Shown here piece after piece: positions 13,414-63,379 of a stretch of DNA of 64,000 nt. The notes under the pieces were generated by a model. The model was not told the DNA's origin and made no database searches. It saw nothing but the letters and a program-made list of their open reading frames with translations. The stretch's first letter is position 1. Every line of letters begins with the position of its first letter. The stretch comes from an uncultured Actinomycetes bacterium (GTDB lineage Bacteria; Actinomycetota; UBA4738; HRBIN12). The translations under genes were made by a program, and so were the position numbers. Where the stretch lies: contig CAVSLX010000013.1 in the NCBI GenBank assembly GCA_963728735.1, positions 79,632-143,631 on the forward strand, given 5' to 3'.

Positions 13414-14406
13414 CTACCCCTCCGAGCCCTCGCTCTCGACGATCTCGTCGGGGGTGTGGTGCGCGGCGGGGACCGTGCCGAGCTTGCCCGCCTGGAAATC
13501 CTCGAACGCTTCGACCAGCTCGTCGCGGGTGTTCATGACGAACGGTCCGTACCAGGCGACCGGCTCACCGATCGGTCGGCCGCCCAACAACAGCACCTCG
13601 AGCGATGAGGAGCGGCTCTCCTGGCCCGTGGCGGCTTCGATGCGCAACGCGCCTCCCGGACCGAAGACCGCGAGCTGACCGGTCCGGACGGGTCGCCGCT
13701 CGGCGCCGACCGTCCCTTCGCCGGCAAGCACATAGACGAGCGCGTTGAACCCGGGGTTCCACGGTAGATCGAGCTTCGCGCCGGGCGCGACCGTCGCGTG
13801 TGCGTACGTGATCGGCGTGTAGGTGTCGCCGGGACCTTGGTACCCGGCGAGCTCGCCGGCGATCATCCGCACCAGCGCGCCGGCGTCGGACGAGGCGAGC
13901 AGACCGACCTCGTTCGCGCGCAGGTCCTGGTAACGGGGAGGCGCCCACTTCTGCGCTTTCGGAAGGTTCACCCAGAGCTGGGAGCCGTGGAACAATCCGC
14001 CGCTGACGACGAGGCGCTCCGGTGGCTTCTCGATGTGCAGGATGCCGGCGCCGGCCGTCATCCATTGGGTGTCGCCGTTCGTGATGACGCCGCCGCCACC
14101 GTTCGAGTCCTCGTGCTCGAACGTCCCGTCGATGATGTAGGTGACCGTCTCGAACCCGCGGTGCGGGTGCCAGGGGGTTCCCTTGGGCTCGCCGGGCGCG
14201 TATTCGACCTCGCCCATCTGGTCCATGTGGATGAACGGATCGAGGTCGGCGAGGTCGACCCCGGCGAACGCGCGCCGCACCGGGAAGCCCTCCCCTTCGA
14301 GGGCGCTCGGCGCGGTGGTCACGGAACGCACCGGCCGCTGGACGGCGCTGCCCACCTCAGGTACGCGCGGCAAGGTCGTGAGGTCGTCAACGGTGATGGC
14401 CGGCAT
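13414..14406 (-). CDS. pirin family protein
   Basis: Conserved pirin N-terminal cupin (HPHRGFETVTYIIDG, GDTQWMTAGAGILHIE). Start MPAITVDDL, with a GGGGA Shine-Dalgarno upstream. Confidence 0.85.
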   Translation of the reverse strand: MPAITVDDLTTLPRVPEVGSAVQRPVRSVTTAPSALEGEGFPVRRAFAGVDLADLDPFIHMDQMGEVEYAPGEPKGTPWHPHRGFETVTYIIDGTFEHEDSNGGGGVITNGDTQWMTAGAGILHIEKPPERLVVSGGLFHGSQLWVNLPKAQKWAPPRYQDLRANEVGLLASSDAGALVRMIAGELAGYQGPGDTYTPITYAHATVAPGAKLDLPWNPGFNALVYVLAGEGTVGAERRPVRTGQLAVFGPGGALRIEAATGQESRSSSLEVLLLGGRPIGEPVAWYGPFVMNTRDELVEAFEDFQAGKLGTVPAAHHTPDEIVESEGSEG

Positions 14407-14471
14407 GTGGTGTTCCCCTTTCCTCGTGAACGGTAACGCGCCGTCGGCGGGTGGACATTCCCCTGGGCAGG

Positions 14472-14610
14472 GCAACAGGTGGACGGCTATCGGCACCCTC
14501 TGCCGCCGGCCGACCGTCAACATGGTTCCGGCTCGCGACCATAGATGCGAGCCGGAACCACGTTGACGCTCACGTGCCCGGAGTTCCGCCGGGAGCCGTC
14601 CACCTGGTGC
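14472..14610. repeat. MITE-like element copy A (17-bp terminal inverted repeats, perfect 21-bp inner palindrome)
   Basis: The terminal repeat GCAACAGGTGGACGGCT at 14472-14488 is the inverted complement of the one at 14594-14610. The inner inverted repeat is GTCAACATGGTTCCGGCTCGC (14516-14536) with GCGAGCCGGAACCACGTTGAC (14547-14567). A homologous copy lies at 23822-23958. Confidence 0.55.
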
Positions 14611-14710
14611 GCTCCCTCCAGCGCCTCCGCAGCCTCGCGCCGGAACGCGATCTGCCCGACCGGGTCGAGTTCGTGTGGCACGGCATCAACGACGAGGAGA
14701 ACCTCCGACG

Positions 14711-15940
14711 CTACGCCCGGCGCGGGAAGATGCAGAACTCGTTGCCCTGAGGATCGGCCATGTTCCGCCAGCGGAACCCGAAGGAATCGTGGGTGTGGCC
14801 GTCGCGCCACCGCCCTCCCAGCCGTTCGATCTCGGCCGTGGCCTCATCGAGATCCTCGATCTCCAGGTCGACGTGCATCCGGTTCTTGCCGTCCTTCGCC
14901 TCGGGGACGCGCTGCAGGATGATCGCGACGCCACCGCGCTCGGAAGCTCCGAGCTCGACGAACTGCCCATCGTTCAAGCGGTCCACGACCTCGACGCCGA
15001 GCAGGGAACACCAGAACGGCGCGATCGCCTCGGGATCCACCGAGTCCAGCACCAGGTTGTCGAGCCGAGCCGGCTTCATGCCCTGCGAACCTCCTTCGTA
15101 CGTGGCGTGATCGGCAAGGGTCGGCGAAGCTCCCCGCGTGAGCGTTCCCGAACGGAACGGCTCGGGGTCGATCTCGACGCGGGTGAAGCCGGCCGAGCGG
15201 ACCGCGTGCTCGATCGCGGCCCTGCCCGACGTGGTGAGCGCCGCCGGTAGCTCGTCGCCGGCGAGCTCGACGCGGCCGGTCTGGCCCAGGTGGCGAACCC
15301 GCAGCTCTCGGAACCCCAGCGCCTTGACGGCTCGCTCGGCCCGATCGACCTGCGCGAGGATGGCGGGGTCGACCTCGGTCCCGAACGGCACTCGCGACGC
15401 CAGACACGGCGACGCCGGCTTGTCCGCGCTCGGAAGCTCGAGCTCGTGGGCGATCGCCCTGACCGCGTCCTTGCCGAGGCCCGCTTCGACGAGCGGATGC
15501 CGCACGCCGTGGTCCGCCGCCGCCCGCAGGCCGGGCCGCCAGTCGCCGAGGTCGTCGGCGTTGGCGCCGGAGAACATCGCGGCGACGCCGCGTGATCGGG
15601 CGAGGATGCCGAGCTGCTCGTACAGCTCGGTCTTGCAGTGATAACAGCGATCCGGGCCGTTGCGCCGGTACCCATCGCGCGCCAGCTCGTCGGTACGAAC
15701 GACCTCGTGGACGATCCCGATCGCACGCGCGACGACGCGGGCGCCGTCGAGCTCGCCGCTCGCGAGGGCGGGCGAGACCGCGGTGACGGCGAGCGCGTTC
15801 GCCCCGAGCACGCGGTGGGCCGCGGCGGCCACGACCGAGGAGTCGACCCCGCCCGAGAACGCGACGACCGCGCCGTCGACGGAACCGACGACGCGCTCGA
15901 GGGTCGCGAGCGCCCGCACGGGATCGGCGTCCGTCGTCAC
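14711..15940 (-). CDS. larE: ATP-dependent sacrificial sulfur transferase LarE fused in frame to a C-terminal VOC/glyoxalase domain
   Basis: PP-loop motif SGGVDSS, CYHCK, and the C-terminal LarE block ELRVRHLGQTGRVEL. There is no stop before the VOC domain (MKPARLDNLVLDSVD...FRWRNMADPQGNEFCIF). GTG start overlaps the larC stop (GTGA). Confidence 0.75.
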   Translation of the reverse strand: MTTDADPVRALATLERVVGSVDGAVVAFSGGVDSSVVAAAAHRVLGANALAVTAVSPALASGELDGARVVARAIGIVHEVVRTDELARDGYRRNGPDRCYHCKTELYEQLGILARSRGVAAMFSGANADDLGDWRPGLRAAADHGVRHPLVEAGLGKDAVRAIAHELELPSADKPASPCLASRVPFGTEVDPAILAQVDRAERAVKALGFRELRVRHLGQTGRVELAGDELPAALTTSGRAAIEHAVRSAGFTRVEIDPEPFRSGTLTRGASPTLADHATYEGGSQGMKPARLDNLVLDSVDPEAIAPFWCSLLGVEVVDRLNDGQFVELGASERGGVAIILQRVPEAKDGKNRMHVDLEIEDLDEATAEIERLGGRWRDGHTHDSFGFRWRNMADPQGNEFCIFPRRA

Positions 15941-17145
15941 GGTCCGGCCGTCTCCGACGTCAGCTCGGCGGCCGCCGCGAGCGCCGCCGTCCACACGGTC
16001 TTGACCGGCTTCCCGACTACGGCGGCGACCGCCGCGCAGTCGTCGTGCTCGGGCGCCACGTTCACCACGCGACCATCGAGATGGCCGAGCTTCACGCGGA
16101 CCGCGTGCCCTTCGACACGCACCTCGCGGATCTCGCGCTCGAGCTCGTAGCGCTGCAGTCGCGACACGCGCACGCCGAGCGTCGAGGTGTGCTCCATCAG
16201 CGAGACGGCCACCGCTCGCTCGGCCTCCGGTCGAGCGAGCGCCGAGACGATCATGCCCGGTCGGCCCTTCTTCATCTGCGCCGGCGCCGTCCACACGTCG
16301 AGCGCGCCGGCAGCGACGCACGCCGCGAGCGCATCGGGGACCAGCTCCGGCGACAGGTCATCGAGGTTCGCCTCGAGGAGCACCACGTCGCCGAGGCCCG
16401 GGCTCGAGGCGTGGGCGTCCTCCGGGGCACCGAGAATCACGCGCACGACGTTCGGACGGCTCGCGAGGTCGGTCGTTCCGGCGCCGTGGCCGACGGCCTC
16501 GATGCGCATCGGCGGGAGCTCGCCGAACGACGAGGACGCCGTCGCCACGATCGCCGCTCCGGTCGGCGTCACGAGCTCGGCTTCGGCCTCGACGCCGACG
16601 AACGGCGCGCCGACGAGCAGCTCGAGCACCGCGGGTCCCGGCGTCGGCATCCGCCCGTGCTCGCCGCGGGCGAGCCCCCGGGCGAACGGAAGCGGCGAGC
16701 ACACGACGCGCTCGATCCCGAGCGCGTCGAGCAGGACGAACGCACCGCACAGGTCCACGATCGTGTCCGCACCGCCGAGCTCGTGGAAGACCACGTCCTC
16801 GGGCGCCACCCCGTGCACCCGCGCCTCGGCTCCGACGAGTCGCTCGAACGCGGTGATCGCCGGCTGCACGACCTCGCCGAGCGCGTTCCGCGCGGCGAGG
16901 AGGCGCTCCCGCAGCTCCGCGACCGCGAACGGCGTCGCGGGCTCGGCACCCACGATCCGGACGTGCGCCGCGTCGATCCCGTGACGACGGACCCGGTCCA
17001 CCTCGACCTTGACCTCGGCGAGCTGCAGCGCCTCGACCGTCGCATGCAGCCGGTCCTGCGGGGCGCCGGCGTCGAGCAGCGCGGCCAGGACCATGTCGCC
17101 CGCCACGCCGGCGACGCAATCGAGGTACGCGACGCGCGTGCTCAC
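15937..17145 (-). CDS. larC: nickel-pincer cofactor biosynthesis protein LarC (nickel insertion, DUF111)
   Basis: N-terminal VAYLDCVAGVAGDMVLAALLDAG. About 402 aa. GTG start overlaps the larB stop. The upstream part of ORF 15937..17577 is junk. Confidence 0.85.
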   Translation of the reverse strand: MSTRVAYLDCVAGVAGDMVLAALLDAGAPQDRLHATVEALQLAEVKVEVDRVRRHGIDAAHVRIVGAEPATPFAVAELRERLLAARNALGEVVQPAITAFERLVGAEARVHGVAPEDVVFHELGGADTIVDLCGAFVLLDALGIERVVCSPLPFARGLARGEHGRMPTPGPAVLELLVGAPFVGVEAEAELVTPTGAAIVATASSSFGELPPMRIEAVGHGAGTTDLASRPNVVRVILGAPEDAHASSPGLGDVVLLEANLDDLSPELVPDALAACVAAGALDVWTAPAQMKKGRPGMIVSALARPEAERAVAVSLMEHTSTLGVRVSRLQRYELEREIREVRVEGHAVRVKLGHLDGRVVNVAPEHDDCAAVAAVVGKPVKTVWTAALAAAAELTSETAGP

Positions 17146-23695: not shown

Positions 23696-23821
23696 GGTCT
23701 TCTCCCTTCTCGGAGAGGATATTGAGCTATCGCTCAAACCATACGCCCAAGTTGAGCGTCTGGTCAAGACCATGTGTGGCCTGGCGAAAGAGGATCGGGT
23801 GACGGCGATCCGTGGCGCAGC

Positions 23822-23958
23822 GCAACAGGTGGACGGCTCACCTGCGACGTCCCCAGACGTGAGCGTCAACCTGGTTCCGACTCCCGACCGGGGTCGGAGT
23901 CGTGAACAGGTATCGACTGGGAGCCTCGGGGAAGCGGGCTGAGGCGTCCACCTGTTGC
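23822..23958. repeat. MITE-like element copy B (homolog of 14472-14610, opposite orientation)
   Basis: Terminal repeats GCAACAGGTGGACGGCT (23822-23838) and AGGCGTCCACCTGTTGC (23942-23958). The inner block ACGTGAGCGTCAACCTGGTTCCGACTC matches the reverse complement of copy A. Confidence 0.55.
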
Positions 23959-24021
23959 GACGGCGCTTTTTCGACGGCGCAGTTGCGACGGCGCGATCCG
24001 TCCCGCGCCTTCCGGCGCGAG

Positions 24022-24426
24022 CTAGCTTGGCGCGAACTCGTCCCAGATCGGGTCGGTCTCCGCGTCGTTCTCGGACATGCCCCAGGCCTCGGTCACCTTG
24101 TCGCCGGCGATGTGGAACACGTTCACGTAGTTGTATTCCACGCTCGCCCCGCTCGGGGCGGTCACGAGCGCCGAGCCGAGCACCACCGCGTGATCGTCGT
24201 TGGCCAAGATGTCGTGGGTCTGCGCCTTCATGGCGTCCGGGTTCGCGACGGCCCCCATCATCTTGGCGACCGTCTCCTTGCCACGGAACGTGCCGGACGC
24301 GCGGCTGTTGCCTCCCACGTGCCACACGATGTCATCGGCGATGTGCGCGTCGAACCACGCCGTCTCGCCGCGGTCCATCGCGGCGAACATCTCCTGGACG
24401 AACGCGACGTTCGGGTGTTCTCCCAT
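24022..24426 (-). CDS. SnoaL-like / NTF2-like domain protein
   Basis: 134 aa (MGEHPNVAFVQEMFAAMDRGE...). AAGGGAG Shine-Dalgarno. Confidence 0.8.
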   Translation of the reverse strand: MGEHPNVAFVQEMFAAMDRGETAWFDAHIADDIVWHVGGNSRASGTFRGKETVAKMMGAVANPDAMKAQTHDILANDDHAVVLGSALVTAPSGASVEYNYVNVFHIAGDKVTEAWGMSENDAETDPIWDEFAPS

Positions 24427-47141: not shown

Positions 47142-47393
47142 CCGCCTCCCCATCCCCCGGAGACGCGTTCGGCGCGGCGCCGGCGCCCCCGGTGCACCCA
47201 CGAAGTACCGAACAGGTCCCTCCCGCCGGCGGAACGCCGACCACGCGAACGGCCGGCGCCGCCGCTCCCGGCCATCCGCGCCCCGTGTGAACGGGTGCAC
47301 GGCGCGCCGCCGGCGGGAGGCTCCACCACCCGATGGCCACGCCACGGATGGGCCCGTGTGCTCGAGCGGTCCGCGCGCCCGGACCGCTCGAGC

Positions 47394-53458: not shown

Positions 53459-53547
53459 CGTGGCCTTCGGATCGGGTGGGGCGTGCCGTTTCGACGCCGG
53501 TCGCCGCTGCGTGAGCACGACTGGGATCGTCGGCTATGGTCGAGCCG

Positions 53548-55107
53548 ATGGCCCGCACGTTCGTACGTGATCTGCATCTTTCATCGGGCCGCCGCATCGC
53601 CGCGGTGCTCGTCTCGACGTTCGCGCCGATCGTGGCGGCGGGACTCTTTGCGCCGATCGATGCGGCAGCCGACCACGGCGGCCTCGACCAGGAGCCCCCC
53701 GACCTCGTCGTCGACACGTTCGTCGACGACTACGACGGCTCGTGCGTCGACGGGGACTGCTCGCTCCGCGACGCGGTGACGAGCGTGCCGGCCCGGGGCA
53801 TCGTCGAGTTGCCAGCGGGTCACTACCCCTTGACCCTCGACGAGGCGGGCACGCCCTTCGACGGTGCGATCGAGATCGACCGTTCGATGACGATCCGCGG
53901 TCGAGGGGATTCGGGGGTCTTCCTCGACGGGACCGAGCTCGACGCGACGATCTTCGAGGTCCGGGGTGGGGCGCGCGTGCACATCCGCCACGTGACCGTG
54001 TTCGGGAGCCGGGAGCGGTTCCGACCGGCAGGCTTCGTCGACGTCGCTCGCGGGACCCTGTTGCTCGACCGGGTGACGGTCGCGGGAGGCGAGGGTCGTC
54101 ATGCCGGCGCCGTGCTCGTCGAGCCGAGAGGCCGCCTGGTCGTGAAGCGCTCCTCGTTCGTCGGCAACCGCAGCTCAGGATGGGGCGGCGCGATCACGGC
54201 GCGATCACGGATCCGGGTCGTCGACTCGACCTTCGACGGGAACCGGGGTGCGAACGGCGGCGCGCTGTTCATCGCGGATGCGCGCGCGGAACTCCGCGGC
54301 GTGACGATCAGCGGCAACCGCTCGCGCGGTTGGGGCGGCGGGATCTACGCCTCGGACGGACGCACGTCGCTCGAGAACGTGACGATCGCCGGGAACCGAG
54401 CTCGCAGCGGGGGGGGCGGCGTCGCGCTCGGCCTGCGAACGGCCGTGGTCGAGGCACGCCACACGATCGTCGCCTTCAACGAGGCTGCCGACGGCGCCCC
54501 CGATTGCCGGCGGAACCTCGCCTCGCGAGGCTTCAACGTGTCCTCCGGAAGGACCTGCGGCTTCGACGAACCGAGCGATCGACAGGGGGTCGATCCCCGG
54601 CTCGGCCCGCTCACGTCGAACGGCGGCCCCACGCCGACGCGCGCGCTCCGGTCCGGAAGCCCCGCGCTCGACGTCGGCGGCAGCTGCTCCCCGTCGGATC
54701 AACGGGGCGCGCCTCGGCAGGGAAGATGCGACGCCGGTGCGTACGAGTTGGTGCGGTGCCTCGGACGCCCGGTGGACATCGTGGGCACCCGGGGCAACGA
54801 CGAGTTCTCGGGAGGTCGCGACCCCGACACCTTCATGGGCCTCATCGGCAACGACGAGTTCCAGGGGTCGCTCGACGACGACCTCGGCTGCGGGAACGCC
54901 GGCAACGACCTGTTGCTCGGCGGACCTGGACCCGACGCGCTCAAGGGCGGTCCCGGTCGCGACCGGCTCGAAGGCGAAGATGGCAACGACCTGCTGATCG
55001 GCGGACCCGGAGCCGATGTCCTGGTCGGTGGCGAGGGACGCGACGTGTGCATCGCCGGTCGGCACGACCGAGGCCGAGGCTGCGAGGTCGAGCGCCGCCG
55101 TCGGTGA
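53548..55107 (+). CDS. secreted right-handed beta-helix protein with C-terminal Ca-binding (RTX-like GGxGxD) repeats
   Basis: Signal peptide. CSLRDAV motif. Repeated GNRxxGxGGA(I/L) beta-helix rungs. C-terminal GNDLLLGGPGPDALKGGPGRDRLEGEDGNDLLIGGPGADVLVGGEGRD. Confidence 0.7.
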   Translation: MARTFVRDLHLSSGRRIAAVLVSTFAPIVAAGLFAPIDAAADHGGLDQEPPDLVVDTFVDDYDGSCVDGDCSLRDAVTSVPARGIVELPAGHYPLTLDEAGTPFDGAIEIDRSMTIRGRGDSGVFLDGTELDATIFEVRGGARVHIRHVTVFGSRERFRPAGFVDVARGTLLLDRVTVAGGEGRHAGAVLVEPRGRLVVKRSSFVGNRSSGWGGAITARSRIRVVDSTFDGNRGANGGALFIADARAELRGVTISGNRSRGWGGGIYASDGRTSLENVTIAGNRARSGGGGVALGLRTAVVEARHTIVAFNEAADGAPDCRRNLASRGFNVSSGRTCGFDEPSDRQGVDPRLGPLTSNGGPTPTRALRSGSPALDVGGSCSPSDQRGAPRQGRCDAGAYELVRCLGRPVDIVGTRGNDEFSGGRDPDTFMGLIGNDEFQGSLDDDLGCGNAGNDLLLGGPGPDALKGGPGRDRLEGEDGNDLLIGGPGADVLVGGEGRDVCIAGRHDRGRGCEVERRRR

Positions 55108-55151
55108 ACCGCTATCGTTGCGCGGTTCGGCATCCCATCGGAAGGAGCACC

Positions 55152-56138
55152 ATGCGCCGAGCACGGCTCCTGTTGGTGACGATCCTCATCGTCGTGTTCG
55201 GTGGGGTTCCGGCCTCGGCAGGTCCCGTCGCCTGCACGTTCGACGAGGCGACGGCGACGGTCACGGTGACCAGTGACGGCCCGGATATCGTGCGGGTCGG
55301 CGACGAGATCATCGTCGACGGGAGCCCGTGCATGGACGGGTTGGTTGCGGCCACCGTCGTGAACACCGACACGATCGTGGTCGAGCCGAACCTGCAAAGC
55401 CTCGCGATCAGTCTGCGCGGAGGCCCCTTCGCGCCGGGCCTCACCGACGAGGGGAACGACTCCTCGGAGATCGAGTTCCAGGTCGACGCGCTTGCGGGCG
55501 ATGCCGCGGTCATCCACGTCCTGGGCGCCTCCGGCGACGACCGCTTCAAGCCGGCATCGCCCGACCCGGACACCGGTGTCATCAACCTCAACGCGTTCGA
55601 GGTTCCGAAGGATCCTGACGTGACGTTCCAGCACGACGCCGTCGACTTCCTGGTGATCGAGGGCCGGGCCGGGAGCGACTCCGTGCTCGCGCACGGACAC
55701 GGCGTCGCGCCCTACATCGGAAGGCTTTTGTTCCTCGCAGGAAGGGGTGACGACCGCATGAAGCCCGGTGACACGACGGAAAGCACCGGCCCGACGCAGT
55801 TCATCGCAGGTCCGGGTCGCGACACCTTCGACGTGTCCTGGCTCCCTAGGGATGCATCCACCTTGCTGGTGCTCACGCAGGGAGGAGGCTACGCCGCCGG
55901 TGAGGTGTCATTGCAGCGCGTCGAGAACCTGATCGGCCACGACGGTCACGACACGCTCGTCGGCGATCTTCGCGATGAGCGGCTCGTTGGTCTGGGCGGC
56001 GACGACGTGATCGAGGGTCGCCGTGGGGACGACACGTTGCTCGGCGACGCAGGAGCCGACGACCTCCTCGGTGGACGCGGCTTCGACCGTTGCGACGGGA
56101 GCGCGGCCGACGTGAGGGTGCGAGGGTGCGAAGCGTGA
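55152..56138 (+). CDS. secreted protein with C-terminal Ca-binding-repeat region (paralog family member 1)
   Basis: GAAGGAG Shine-Dalgarno. Signal peptide MRRARLLLVTILIVVFGGVPASA. N-terminal CTFDEATATVTVT. C-terminal GDDVIEGRRGDDTLLGDAGADDLLGGRGFDRCDG. Confidence 0.7.
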   Translation: MRRARLLLVTILIVVFGGVPASAGPVACTFDEATATVTVTSDGPDIVRVGDEIIVDGSPCMDGLVAATVVNTDTIVVEPNLQSLAISLRGGPFAPGLTDEGNDSSEIEFQVDALAGDAAVIHVLGASGDDRFKPASPDPDTGVINLNAFEVPKDPDVTFQHDAVDFLVIEGRAGSDSVLAHGHGVAPYIGRLLFLAGRGDDRMKPGDTTESTGPTQFIAGPGRDTFDVSWLPRDASTLLVLTQGGGYAAGEVSLQRVENLIGHDGHDTLVGDLRDERLVGLGGDDVIEGRRGDDTLLGDAGADDLLGGRGFDRCDGSAADVRVRGCEA

Positions 56139-57169
56139 GGGGCTTGGTCGTCGCAACCCGCCGACCCCTCGCGGTCGCCACGATCATCGGAGCACTCGCC
56201 GCCTTGGCGAGCACCGAGGTCGCGGCCGGGCCCGTCGAGGAGTGCGTCTTCGACGCCGGGACCGCCACCGTCACGATCGAGGTCCAGGACGATGTCGTGA
56301 TCGTCACCGACGCGAACGATCCGAACGGATCGATCGTGGTGGACGGCTCGCCGTGCGGAGCCGCCACGGTGACCAACACCGATCTGGTCGACATCCATGC
56401 GGGAAGCGACAACCGGATCGACATCGTGACGGACGACGGCGCGTTCGCCCCCGGAGCGACCGACGAGGGTGACGGCGCCTCCGAGATCGAGTTCCACATC
56501 ACCCAGGGCACGGACGCCGTGCTCGTGATCTCCGGCGGCGCGGCATCAGACGCGTTCGCAACCGCGCTGGCTTCGATCGCACTGTCGACGTATGTCGGCG
56601 CGGTCAACCTGAACGCCGACGAGTCCGTCCTCGACCACGACGTCCTCATCGAACTCGGGCTGATGTCAGGCCTCTTCGTGACGAGCGGTGGAGGGAGCGA
56701 CCGGTTCGATCTCACCGGCGGGGGTGCGGGCGAGGCCCCCTTGCCGGTGGCAACGACCGTCGGCGGCGGTCCTGGCGATGACCGCTTCTCGTTCAGGGGG
56801 GGGTTCAGCGATCTCGTCGCGATCTTCGGTGGCGGCGGCACGGACGCACTCGATCTCTCGAGCGCACAGGTGGGTTCGCAATTCATCGTCAACCTCCGGA
56901 CCGGCGATGGGATCGTGAACGGATCGTTCTCGGTGGCTGACCTCGAGGAGCTCGTCGGACACGACGGCGTGGACATCTTCGTGGGCGATAGCCACCGGCA
57001 GCGTTTCGTGGGCGGCCAGGGCGACGATTCGCTCCTCGGGAGGGCGGGAGGCGACCAGCTCGTCGGCGGGACCGGCGACGATCGCGTCTACGGCGGGCTG
57101 GGCCACGACACCTGCCGGCCGGGCACCGGGAACGACAGGGTCCGAAGCTGTGAGGCTCTCATTTCGTGA
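56135..57169 (+). CDS. secreted protein with C-terminal Ca-binding-repeat region (paralog family member 2)
   Basis: GTG start overlaps the stop of the previous gene. Signal peptide. N-terminal CVFDAGTATVTIEV. C-terminal GGQGDDSLLGRAGGDQLVGGTGDDRVYGGLGHDTC. Confidence 0.7.
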   Translation: MRGLVVATRRPLAVATIIGALAALASTEVAAGPVEECVFDAGTATVTIEVQDDVVIVTDANDPNGSIVVDGSPCGAATVTNTDLVDIHAGSDNRIDIVTDDGAFAPGATDEGDGASEIEFHITQGTDAVLVISGGAASDAFATALASIALSTYVGAVNLNADESVLDHDVLIELGLMSGLFVTSGGGSDRFDLTGGGAGEAPLPVATTVGGGPGDDRFSFRGGFSDLVAIFGGGGTDALDLSSAQVGSQFIVNLRTGDGIVNGSFSVADLEELVGHDGVDIFVGDSHRQRFVGGQGDDSLLGRAGGDQLVGGTGDDRVYGGLGHDTCRPGTGNDRVRSCEALIS

Positions 57170-60229: not shown

Positions 60230-61339
60230 TCAAGCCGACGAGATCCGGCATGAACACTGCGGTACCGACGTCGGGCGGCGCCGTTGCAACGATCTCGACG
60301 AGAAGAACGTCCGGACGCGCTCGAGGCTTCCGTCGTTCGCCCAGCCGAGCCGGCCGACCTTCCACGTGGGTTCCACGAGGAGGAGGAATCGCCCTGGCTC
60401 CTCAGGCACGGTCACGCTTCCCGAGGACAGATCGAAGGGGATGTCGGGCCCGACGTTCCGCGACCACGCTTCGAGCAGGCCGACGTCGAGGTCCATGGGA
60501 GGCGTGCCCGCAAGGACGATCTGAGCCCCGGGCGCCAGCCTCAGGAGATCTCCGTCGTCGAACACGGGCTCGGCCGGTGGAAACTGGATCCCAGTGTCGC
60601 TGGCTGCCATCTCCCATCCGGACACGAAGGCGTGAACACGGCGACCGTCGAGCCAGGCGACGACCGACGCTCTGGTGGTGGGCGTGTCCTCGAGGACGAG
60701 CTGCAACGTCCCGGAGGGCACGAGCGGGAACGCCCAGAGGAACTCGGTCGTGCCTTTGGACCAGGATGCCTCCACGACGATGACGTACTCACCCTGCTCG
60801 TCAGGAAGGACCGCCGGCCCTTCCTCGAGGTCGAACGACGCGACCGGCGAGCCGTTCCCGTAACCCGCGAGGGTGTAGATCTCGAGCGTCGCGCCGTCGG
60901 CATCACCGGTAAGGGCGACGGTCCCCCGACCGGGAGGGCGACCGGGCTTCGTGGAAGGTCTTGCTCGATCCCGAACCCCTCGGGCACCGGCCAGGTCGTG
61001 GCGTTGACCTTGAGCTCCTGGTCGAGATCGCCGTGCGTCAGCCGTGCGGTCGGGAGGGGCGGATCGACGTCATCGGCGGGCCTGGACAACGTGATCGTGG
61101 CGTCGATCGTGCCGTCGCCTCCGACGGGTGACGGACCTTCTCGGAAGGCCCGGACGGCGAAGGCGCCGGCAGCCGCGAACACGGCGAATGCCACGACGAC
61201 CGTGAACGCTCGCTGACGCGCCGATGGCACAGGCGCGCCGCACCGGTCGCCTGTCGGTCACGCGCTCCCAAGCCGCGTCGGCATCGTCGAGTCGCGGAAG
61301 CTTCGTCAGCTCGCGCTGCCAGCGTTCGGGCATCGTCAT
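60230..61339 (-). pseudogene. membrane-anchored partner of ECF sigma factor (putative anti-sigma), frameshifted
   Basis: N-terminus MTMPERWQRELTKL, like the intact paralog MTERWQRELGKL. The TM segment RQRAFTVVVAFAVFAAAGAFAV and the distal part are in two other frames. Confidence 0.45.
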
Positions 61340-61854
61340 TCCACCTCCTCGGCCCCGAGGATCTCCCGGAGCCGCGTTCGTCCTCGATGCAGATGCACGC
61401 GCGCCGTCGCCGAGGTGATGCCGAGCCGTCGTGCCACGTCGGCGACCGGCAGGTCGACCTCGTAGAACAGGACGATCGCGGCACGCTGGTTCGGCGAGAG
61501 CTGCCGGAGGGCCTCGATGACTCCGTTGGCCTCAGGCGGCCCGGTATCCGGCTCCTCGGGCGCCTCGCGGAGGTCTTCCGACGGCGGAGGTCCTCGGCCG
61601 CGATCCGGAACGCCACCCGATAGAGCCATGCCACCGGCTCGCGGATCCCATCGGCGTACGCGATCGCCCGCGCGAACGCTTCGGCCAGCGCGTCGTCCGC
61701 GATCTCGCGCTCGGCCGCCCGTGTAGGCGTAGAGCGCGCGCCACACGTTCGGCCCCTCGTCACGGAAGAGTTGCTCGAAGTCGTGCGCGGAGTCGACGCG
61801 CACCTGCCGGCGTCCCACCACAGCCACTATGTCGCTCGAGGTCGTCGCATACAC
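61336..61854 (-). pseudogene. ECF sigma factor, frameshifted (region 2.2-3 in alternate frame)
   Basis: Region 4 is intact (LSPNQRAAIVLFYEVDLPVADVARRLGITSATARVHLHRGRTRL). The AEREIADDALAEAFARAIAYADGIREPVAWLYRVAFRIAAEDLRRRK block is only readable in the ORF 61038..61763 frame. Confidence 0.5.
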
Positions 61855-61892: not shown

Positions 61893-62867
61893 TTACGTGG
61901 TCCGTTCACGTCTCCGCGTTATCCGGGAGATGGGAAAGCCGCTTCCTCCGGATCGCCGGCGTCGCGACGCGACTCGATCCCCGAGCCGGCGCACGCTGGA
62001 ACCCCCCAGCAGCGAGTAGCCGCCATCCATGGCCCCCACGTGGAAGGATGCCGCCACGACACCGCTCCTGACGACCCGAGCTTCGGACCACGGCCACGCA
62101 TCGCCGGCCATCGGGTACCCCGCTTCCTCGATCACGTCATCTGGTAGAAGTCCCGCAACAGCAGCGCGAACGGCAGCTTCGAGCGTGTCGGCGGTTGACC
62201 ATGCGTCGAGAGCCTGCTGGTCCTCACATGGAAGGACGTAGTCGACGTAGTGACCGTTAGGGTCCACGAGCTCGAACACGGCTTCGTGCGCTTCGGGATC
62301 CCAGCTCAGCCCGCCACCGAGCATCTCTTCCCCGCCGGAAACCCCGCCGGAGCTCCCACTCCCTTGCTCCGGACCGGGCTCGCAGACAACACGCACCTCG
62401 CCGACGGGTACCGGGCGCACGAACGTGTCATCGGTACCGGAGCTGCCACTCCACCACGAGCGCGTTTCCAGACGCGTCGACATCAGGCCGATCTCAGGAT
62501 CCGCCAGATCCGTCACCTGCGCGTCCACATGGAGGCCGTCGATCTGTGCAGCGACCACCGGGGTGAGGATCTCGATCCCCGTCGCATCGCAGCGCACTCG
62601 TAGCGCGTCCGCCGGCTCGTCAGCTGCTGAACCTTCGATCGGCCCCGGATCGACCGGCTCAGCTTCGCCCGAGAACGCCTGCAAGGCGAACGCGCCAGCG
62701 GCAGCGAACACGCCGAACGCCACCAAGCCAGCGAGCACCCGTTGCCGTGTGCCCGCCATCGGCGGCACACGGTCGCCGTGCGGACCCTCCTCGATCCGCT
62801 GTCGCACGCGCCGCGGGGCGCTCACGCCCCTGAGCTTGCCGAGCTCCCTCTGCCAGCGTTCGGTCAT
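61893..62867 (-). CDS. membrane-anchored protein downstream of ECF sigma (putative anti-sigma factor)
   Basis: MTERWQRELGKL, then a TM helix (VLAGLVAFGVFAAAGAFALQAF), then a 250-aa extracytoplasmic domain. Confidence 0.6.
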   Translation of the reverse strand: MTERWQRELGKLRGVSAPRRVRQRIEEGPHGDRVPPMAGTRQRVLAGLVAFGVFAAAGAFALQAFSGEAEPVDPGPIEGSAADEPADALRVRCDATGIEILTPVVAAQIDGLHVDAQVTDLADPEIGLMSTRLETRSWWSGSSGTDDTFVRPVPVGEVRVVCEPGPEQGSGSSGGVSGGEEMLGGGLSWDPEAHEAVFELVDPNGHYVDYVLPCEDQQALDAWSTADTLEAAVRAAVAGLLPDDVIEEAGYPMAGDAWPWSEARVVRSGVVAASFHVGAMDGGYSLLGGSSVRRLGDRVASRRRRSGGSGFPISRITRRRERTT

Positions 62868-62872
62868 CGTCG

Positions 62873-63379
62873 TCAGTCCTCCTCGGTGCCGAGCAGCTCG
62901 CGGAGCCGCTTGCGGCCGCGGTGCAGGTGTACGCGCACGGTCGGAGACGCGATGCCCATCCGATCCGCGACCTCGTCGATGTCGAGATCGAGCACGTGAC
63001 GCAGGACGATGGCCGCTCGTTGGTGGGGCGACAGCTCGCGCAGCGCGTCCATCAAGCCGTTCAATTCCGGACCGGCGACCTCGACATCGACCTCCGACGC
63101 CCGTCGTCGGTCGCGGCGGACCTCGTCGATCGCCACGCGGAACCCCACCCGGTAGATCCAGGCCAGCGGGTCACGAAGTCCCGGCCCGTGCGCAACGGCG
63201 CGCGCGAACGCCTCGGCCGTGGCCTCTTCGGCGACGTCGGCGCGCCCGCCCGTGAACGCGAAGAGCGTGCGGAACACGCGGTCGCCCTCGGCACGGAACA
63301 GCGCGTCGAGGTCGCCGGAGACTCCGGTCGAGGACTCCGCGTCGCTCCCGATCAGCTCGGCCTCCACGGTCGCCATCAT
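62873..63379 (-). CDS. RNA polymerase sigma-70 factor, ECF subfamily
   Basis: Region 2 (LAWIYRVGFRVAIDEVRR) and region 4 (LSPHQRAAIVLRHVLDLDIDEVADRMGIASPTVRVHLHRGRKRL). Confidence 0.8.
   Translation of the reverse strand: MMATVEAELIGSDAESSTGVSGDLDALFRAEGDRVFRTLFAFTGGRADVAEEATAEAFARAVAHGPGLRDPLAWIYRVGFRVAIDEVRRDRRRASEVDVEVAGPELNGLMDALRELSPHQRAAIVLRHVLDLDIDEVADRMGIASPTVRVHLHRGRKRLRELLGTEED

Follow-up and report, generated by a model that had tools for sequence, protein, structure and literature searches.

Prokaryotic MITEs are shorter than 500 bp and have terminal repeats of 4-30 bp (PMC10969869). The Correia sequences of Neisseria and the ERIC sequences of enterobacteria are imperfect palindromes of about 100-200 bp located in intergenic, often transcribed DNA, and REPINs, which are inverted doublets of REP sequences, are mobilised by RAYT transposases. 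The window analysed in this study, i.e. the whole 64-kb stretch of DNA, comes from an uncultured member of the Actinomycetota living in soil; its G+C content is 70.6%, and the best homologs of its pirin, 88-89% identical, were found in soil metagenomes and MAGs. The window contains two copies, A and B, of a palindromic repeat whose size (139 and 137 bp), 17-nt terminal repeats and lack of coding capacity are those of a MITE, but no consistent target-site duplication accompanies them. Like the Correia and ERIC sequences, the copies are about 140 bp long with terminal inverted repeats of 17-23 nt, they are non-coding and intergenic, lying just after one gene and ahead of the next, and their transcript would fold into a long hairpin. 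Unlike these families, they were seen in 2 copies only instead of tens to hundreds, they have no known partner insertion sequence, and they carry conserved subterminal inner sites. A target-site duplication such as the TA of Correia was not found, and both copies are GC-rich, whereas typical MITEs are AT-rich. No sequence similarity to described families was detected in Rfam or in the plasmid collection.

The initial annotation had proposed either a non-autonomous transposable element or a REP-like repeat. For the first proposal, size and terminal repeats fit, but mobility is not supported, as neither a target-site duplication common to the copies nor a transposase in the window was found. The second is not borne out. 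Like REPINs, the copies consist of two short conserved sequences, inverted relative to each other, with a spacer of lower conservation between them, and the whole folds into a hairpin of about 100-140 nt. Unlike REPINs, the repeated end GCAACAGGTGGACGGCT has no internal dyad when read from the sequence, and the copy number in the sampled DNA is tiny; no RAYT/Y1-transposase was found among the about 47 window ORFs scanned. Because the repeated end lacks palindromic symmetry of its own and RAYT genes were not detected among those ORFs, A and B are not REP-like. We tentatively propose, with a probability of about 45%, that A and B are a lineage-restricted, low-copy relic of a non-autonomous transposon of the MITE kind that forms an inter-operon hairpin. 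This proposal is partly supported, by the anatomy of the copies only: their shape is MITE-like, and their transposon origin is inferred. The copies and their sites are listed below, with the coordinates of the window.

14472..14610: copy A, palindromic repeat of 139 bp, between the LarE-VOC stop (14711) and the pirin start (14406)
14472..14488, plus strand: outer site (terminal inverted repeat) of the A left arm, GCAACAGGTGGACGGCT, 0 mismatches
14512..14536, plus strand: inner site of the A left arm, GACCGTCAACATGGTTCCGGCTCGC
14547..14571, minus strand: inner site of the A right arm, GAGCGTCAACGTGGTTCCGGCTCGC
14594..14610, minus strand: outer site (terminal inverted repeat) of the A right arm, GCACCAGGTGGACGGCT, 1 mismatch
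23822..23958: copy B, palindromic repeat of 137 bp, between the SnoaL stop (24022) and the promoter of the membrane-DCC1-TetR operon (23767-23738, minus strand)
23822..23838, plus strand: outer site of the B left arm, GCAACAGGTGGACGGCT, 0 mismatches
23857..23883, plus strand: inner block of the B left arm, ACGTGAGCGTCAACCTGGTTCCGACTC, common to the A right arm, with 0 substitutions relative to the metagenomic ortholog L123
23895..23917, minus strand: degenerate inner site of the B right arm, GTCGATACCTGTTCACGACTCC, with indels relative to the other three inner sites
23942..23958, minus strand: outer site of the B right arm, GCAACAGGTGGACGCCT, 1 mismatch

The window contains four instances of the 17-mer GCAACAGGTGGACGGCT with no more than one mismatch, exactly at the four ends of the copies, and nowhere else in the window even at three mismatches, with 0.20 instances expected from shuffled sequences. 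The inner block GAGCGTCAACNTGGTTCCGRCTC, which is 23-27 nt long and occurs twice in A and once in B, was found three times, at 14512(+), 14549(-) and 23861(+), with 0.00 expected. Both the pair of elements with common 17-bp terminal inverted repeats and their common internal block, as claimed in the initial annotation, were thus recovered; the length of 138 bp given for them is actually 139 bp for A and 137 bp for B. The best alignment joins A(-) and B(+), with 81% identity over 63 nt (BLAST, E = 6e-10 within the window), and this pair is the longest inverted repeat of the whole window (I1, 78 nt, 74%), so the copies were correctly described as being in opposite orientation. The terminal repeats are 17 nt long, complementary at 16 of the 17 positions, and can be extended to 29 nt at 83%. 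In both copies the similarity between A and B ends sharply, a few bases from these symmetrical terminal repeats. The inner palindrome reported for A is real and has arms of 25 nt (I6, 14512-14536 and 14547-14571, 92% complementary), but its spacer is 10 nt and not 11 nt. Each arm consists of an outer 17-nt site and an inner site of about 19-27 nt, which are about 44 bp apart from start to start, and in three arms the outer site is separated from the inner one by a fixed 26-27 nt.

Copies A and B are 9.2 kb apart. Their neighbours had been described as convergent or tandem genes, of which only the tandem arrangement holds, as the minus strand encodes all four of the flanking genes. Copy A is flanked by a LarE-glyoxalase fusion ORF (stop 14711), which is the end of a larB-larC-larE cluster, and by pirin (start 14406); copy B is flanked by a SnoaL-like gene (24022-24426) and by a three-gene operon encoding a membrane protein, a DCC1-like protein and a TetR protein (start 23695). 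The genes flanking A have nothing in common with those flanking B. Each copy follows a stop codon at a distance of 63-100 nt and precedes the next unit. Between B and the membrane-DCC1-TetR operon there are a promoter-like TTGACC-18-TATGGT (23767-23738, minus strand) and an operator-like palindrome; B is upstream of this promoter and therefore not in the leader.

The similarity to relatives stops at 14405-14416, the pirin start, or at 23751-23774, the operon promoter, and every relative fetched (L121, L122, L134-L138, L140 and L141) has a different gene beyond that. Copies A and B are therefore situated about 50-70 nt beyond synteny breakpoints, in lineage-specific DNA. The relatives keep pirin, and the membrane operon with its promoter and operator, yet they are without the element. 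The sole syntenic relative is L123, which also carries copy B. Synteny breakpoints are typical ground for mobile elements and rearrangements and are not a proof of mobility; the element marks two rearrangement-prone junctions.

Further copies were searched for in a wide range of DNA. No third copy was found in the 64-kb window, and a profile search with nhmmer found no full, half or degenerate copy beyond A, B and L123. The loci of the above relatives, with 75-85% nucleotide identity and about 115 kb of sequence, contained no copy. A paired-end scan of 241 million metagenome records, in which both ends were required, gave 11 matches, of which one was real (L123) and the other 10 were unrelated coding or other palindromic DNA. 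No copy was found in the plasmid collection by blastn, nor among viral contigs with three patterns. A word-indexed search of the called proteins in 5.8 billion clusters with the translated element yielded no candidates, and a full HMMER scan with it yielded only five low-complexity matches in large proteins. When the genome collection (596 Gb) was scanned with a 16-nt end, 120 loci were obtained among the matches listed, all of them single chance matches with no other similarity; this end pattern is unspecific, and about a thousand chance matches were estimated for 596 Gb.

Target-site duplications and a transposase, both suggested in the initial annotation as things to look for, were not found. 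With the boundaries shifted by every offset between -10 and +10, no target-site duplication of at least 3 bp proved common to A and B. GGCGC is duplicated at B only, with offset (-3, +3), and L123 has TGGCGC at unequal offsets, both of which are within chance at 70% GC. Target-site duplications are known to decay in old MITE copies (PMC10969869), so their absence weakens the case for a MITE without excluding it. No transposase, integrase or reverse transcriptase domains were detected in the about 47 window ORFs, and the window contains no longer element with the same ends (GCAACAGGTGGACGG). As no evidence of movement was obtained, A and B are to be taken as an ordinary, low-copy repeat.

If A and B derive from a transposon, the following history may be proposed. 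They would be two old and diverged copies of a short non-coding palindromic repeat that is restricted to an uncultured, 70%-GC lineage of Actinomycetota, and their most likely origin would be a non-autonomous derivative of a DNA transposon (MITE). The outer sites, and perhaps the inner ones, would be relics of binding sites for a transposase supplied in trans. Both copies would have ended up in the gap between independently transcribed units on the same strand, where read-through transcripts are predicted to fold into a hairpin of -80 to -100 kcal/mol, and such a hairpin could be a barrier to read-through or to 3' exonucleases. Two transposase-binding sites per end are present in some Tc1/mariner ends (IR-DR) and in the ends of the IS21 family, which have repeated subterminal sites. 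In the same way, the outer and the inner site of each arm of A and B point in the same direction, with a constant distance of about 44 bp from start to start. Unlike in those ends, the resemblance between outer and inner sites is weak: both loosely fit CAAC-n-GGT-n-CGGCTC, which is not significant (p = 0.01-0.25 per arm), and no transposase is known for A and B. The idea that one motif is directly repeated in the outer and inner sites was therefore rejected, being suggestive and not significant. The ends of A and B also do not match the terminal dinucleotides that we take to be those of the Tc1/mariner and IS21 families. If mobile, the repeat would represent a further MITE family, with two sites on each arm as an unusual trait, in a high-GC, uncultured and poorly sampled lineage of actinobacteria; it would help in annotating repeats and in the search for its transposase, and would not be conceptually new. 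As it stands, it is a small and well-delimited repeat of modest annotation value.

The conservation of the sites bears on what may have kept them. In the alignment of six rows (A4), in which arm identities were counted by eye, the outer sites are identical between paralogous arms at 16-17 of the 17 positions and the inner block at about 25 of the 27, whereas the 26-27-nt spacers show 27-44% identity between arms, no matter whether the arms belong to the same copy or to different copies. The contig L123 is an 1146-bp soil metagenome contig which is an ortholog of the B locus and 93% identical to it overall; its coding parts are better conserved than its intergenic DNA, and the SnoaL protein is identical. 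Within the element, nine substitutions separate B from L123 (B positions 19, 26, 28, 70, 91, 102, 105, 115 and 116), and the one at position 91 falls within the degenerate right inner site. All nine are outside the 61 nt of outer sites and inner block (hypergeometric P = 0.004, based on nine substitutions only). Since the sites are conserved and the spacers have drifted, it is four short sites at fixed spacing that have been maintained, apparently by selection, and not a long stem. Judged from these alignments, the pattern is better explained by sequence-specific recognition, by a transposase or a protein of the host, than by an RNA helix preserved through pairing. The binding of a regulator to the inner palindrome of A, as suggested in the initial annotation, could be compatible with it.

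The same pattern is what would be expected from a host module acting in cis that is not a mobile element, i.e. four sites for one protein which form an operator array, an insulator or a recombination site and were duplicated to two inter-operon gaps. This explanation, the main alternative, is in our opinion rather unlikely, although several results speak for it. Sites are conserved and spacers are free to vary both in paralogs and in orthologs, the spacing from outer to inner site is fixed in three arms, the outer and inner sites resemble each other weakly, and the copy number is very low with no sign of transposition. Moreover, decaying relics should gain substitutions in their terminal repeats in orthologs, and none was seen, which points towards a function at the level of the host. 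On the other hand, the flanking genes of A (pirin and LarE-VOC) and of B (SnoaL and the membrane-DCC1-TetR operon) are unrelated, and the relatives retain pirin and the membrane operon, complete with promoter and operator, without the element, so those genes do not need it. The orientation relative to the flanking genes has not been kept either, because the -35 box of the operon that follows B is downstream of B, and it is A(-) that matches B(+). The likeness of the outer sites to the inner ones did not reach significance, and the statistic on the ortholog is drawn from nine substitutions. It is less probable still that the four sites are host-selected as a previously undescribed, protein-bound inter-operon module (e.g. 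an insulator, a recombination site or an anchor of a nucleoid protein), the transposon-like shape being incidental or domesticated. If the conservation of the sites reflected a host function, the repeat would matter more, because a DNA-binding protein not known so far, and the architecture of its target, would then be indicated.

The stability of the hairpins raises an alternative at the RNA level. Folding, which the initial annotation had recommended, gave very stable hairpins for both copies: the predicted energies on the two strands were -95.6 and -100.3 kcal/mol for A (z = -8.5) and -85.8 and -81.3 kcal/mol for B (z about -6.5), and over both strands of both copies z ranged from -6 to -8.5, with 0 shuffles folding as well. 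The four sites on the inverted arms pair into two stems, an outer and an inner one, with a poorly paired interior, and the helix is discontinuous. Mycobacterium tuberculosis has a conserved terminator motif. A terminator-like repeat conserved in sequence, SPRITE, is present in Streptococcus pneumoniae (PMC10969869). Like these, A and B are repeated, sequence-conserved hairpins downstream of genes, here of an actinobacterium; unlike these, they measure about 140 nt rather than about 40-50 nt, have two stems with an unpaired interior, are not followed by a T-run, and lie in opposite directions relative to transcription. The copies could accordingly be thought of as sequence-conserved terminator or stabiliser hairpins without a U-tract at operon 3' ends, or as a small RNA gene in the shape of a hairpin. 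Such a role would suit both their stability and their location, which is 63-100 nt after a stop codon and between tandem units that require termination. We nevertheless consider it improbable. There is no T-run after the stem on either strand, and the interior of the hairpin has not been kept complementary, as shown by the low identity of the spacers between arms. None of the nine ortholog substitutions is compensatory, the two copies are oppositely oriented relative to transcription, and the SnoaL stop codon is already followed by a separate small GC hairpin. Rfam gave 0 matches in the window at the gathering score; its best sub-threshold matches were generic models of microRNA precursor hairpins, which scored 27 bits against 63 and 26 against 140. 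A canonical intrinsic (Rho-independent) terminator was rejected, since the scan of both gaps on both strands found no terminator-like sites and the T-run is absent. The sole run of five T is on the plus strand, 8 nt beyond B, within a 28-bp insertion that is absent from L123.

The least probable of the explanations considered, that A and B are a non-functional remnant of an old local duplication or rearrangement that was never mobile, with the palindrome as a by-product, would agree with only two known copies 9.2 kb apart at synteny breakpoints, with the probable 28-bp slippage duplication adjoining B and with a possible truncated coding remnant abutting A, but neutral DNA would not keep blocks of 17 nt and 27 nt near-identical while the intervening DNA drifts to random similarity, ortholog substitutions would not avoid these blocks, and similarity would not end sharply at symmetrical terminal repeats in both copies.

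No coding feature explains the element, in agreement with the initial annotation. Codon periodicity was not detected inside either copy, where the GC content is about 0.56-0.76 at every codon position, and stops are present in most of the reading frames. The ORF spanning copy A (14451-14750, plus strand) had no Pfam match. A small protein encoded by the element was rejected on the basis of the missing codon periodicity and of frameshifting indels between the window and L123 just upstream of B. Gene callers should not put ORFs across the element. A promoter inside the element was rejected as well, because no sigma-70-like site was returned by the scan, and no -10 box at a proper distance from the TTGACG of the inner site could be recognised by manual reading. 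Integron attC sites, in which the outer core sites RYYYAAC ... GTTRRRY lie on an imperfect palindrome, were considered; the candidates, CGTCAAC and GTTGACG, break the consensus at two and one positions, respectively, and no integrase domain was found among the scanned window ORFs that could represent an integron integrase next to the element. The 9.2 kb between A and B carry ordinary genes, namely larB, larC, larE-VOC, the TetR operon, and genes for an ABC transporter, PadR and an Erm-like methyltransferase. The idea of a composite transposon or island with A and B as its boundaries was rejected, since this region has no recombinase and part of it is conserved elsewhere in relatives.

Several other features of the window were observed beside the copies. 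The gaps around them had been called gene-free, which does not entirely hold for the gap of A. The segment directly to the right of A (14611-14710, plus strand) shows strong codon periodicity, with GC contents of 0.78/0.38/0.91 by codon position, and the plus-strand frame, which reads ...DLPDRVEFVWHGINDEENLRRYARRGKMQNSLP*, extends 40 nt into the convergent LarE-VOC gene before it terminates in TGA at 14750. Translation could start from a GTG at 14607, inside the terminal repeat of A, with GGGAG 11 nt upstream. The frame 14607-14750 had no Pfam or NCBIfam match, and it is a small gene or else the 3' part left over from a gene whose truncation coincides with the element boundary. The neighbouring minus-strand gene at 14711-16321 is a single ORF with a LarE sulfur-transferase domain (residues 139-394) and a C-terminal Glyoxalase_6/VOC domain (423-532); it is downstream of larC (Ni_insertion) and larB (AIRC), and it looks like a LarE-VOC fusion.

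Near B, the palindrome TTGAGCGATAGCTCAA at 23722-23737 follows the promoter-like TTGACC-18-TATGGT. The whole stretch of promoter and palindrome (23716-23774, minus strand) is conserved in L136-L138, L140 and L141, and because of this conservation the palindrome is probably the TetR operator of the membrane-DCC1-TetR operon. Directly after the right end of B, the octamer GACGGCGC is repeated three times with a period of 14 nt (23953-23993). L123 has a single unit, and the window therefore carries the 28-bp insertion mentioned above. The insertion re-copies the last 5 nt of the terminal repeat (GTTGC), and it was probably produced by replication slippage at the element end.

Further away, a GC-rich intergenic hairpin is found by an MFS transporter gene at 47219-47320, with 29-nt arms that are 83% complementary and 44 nt apart; its sequence is unrelated to A and B except for a short GTTCCGCCGG-like stretch. 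Degenerate repeats with a period of 27/54 nt (GGCAACGAC...GGC, seven listed copies) occur inside long ORFs at 53500-57100, and they are suggestive of the calcium-binding RTX-type repeats of a large secreted protein. Finally, the segments 61299-61707 and 62833-63239 contain direct repeats of 229 and 126 nt, each with 71% identity, 1.53 kb apart, and an ECF-type sigma factor is encoded at 62873-63379; these repeats are probably a tandem pair of paralogous genes.
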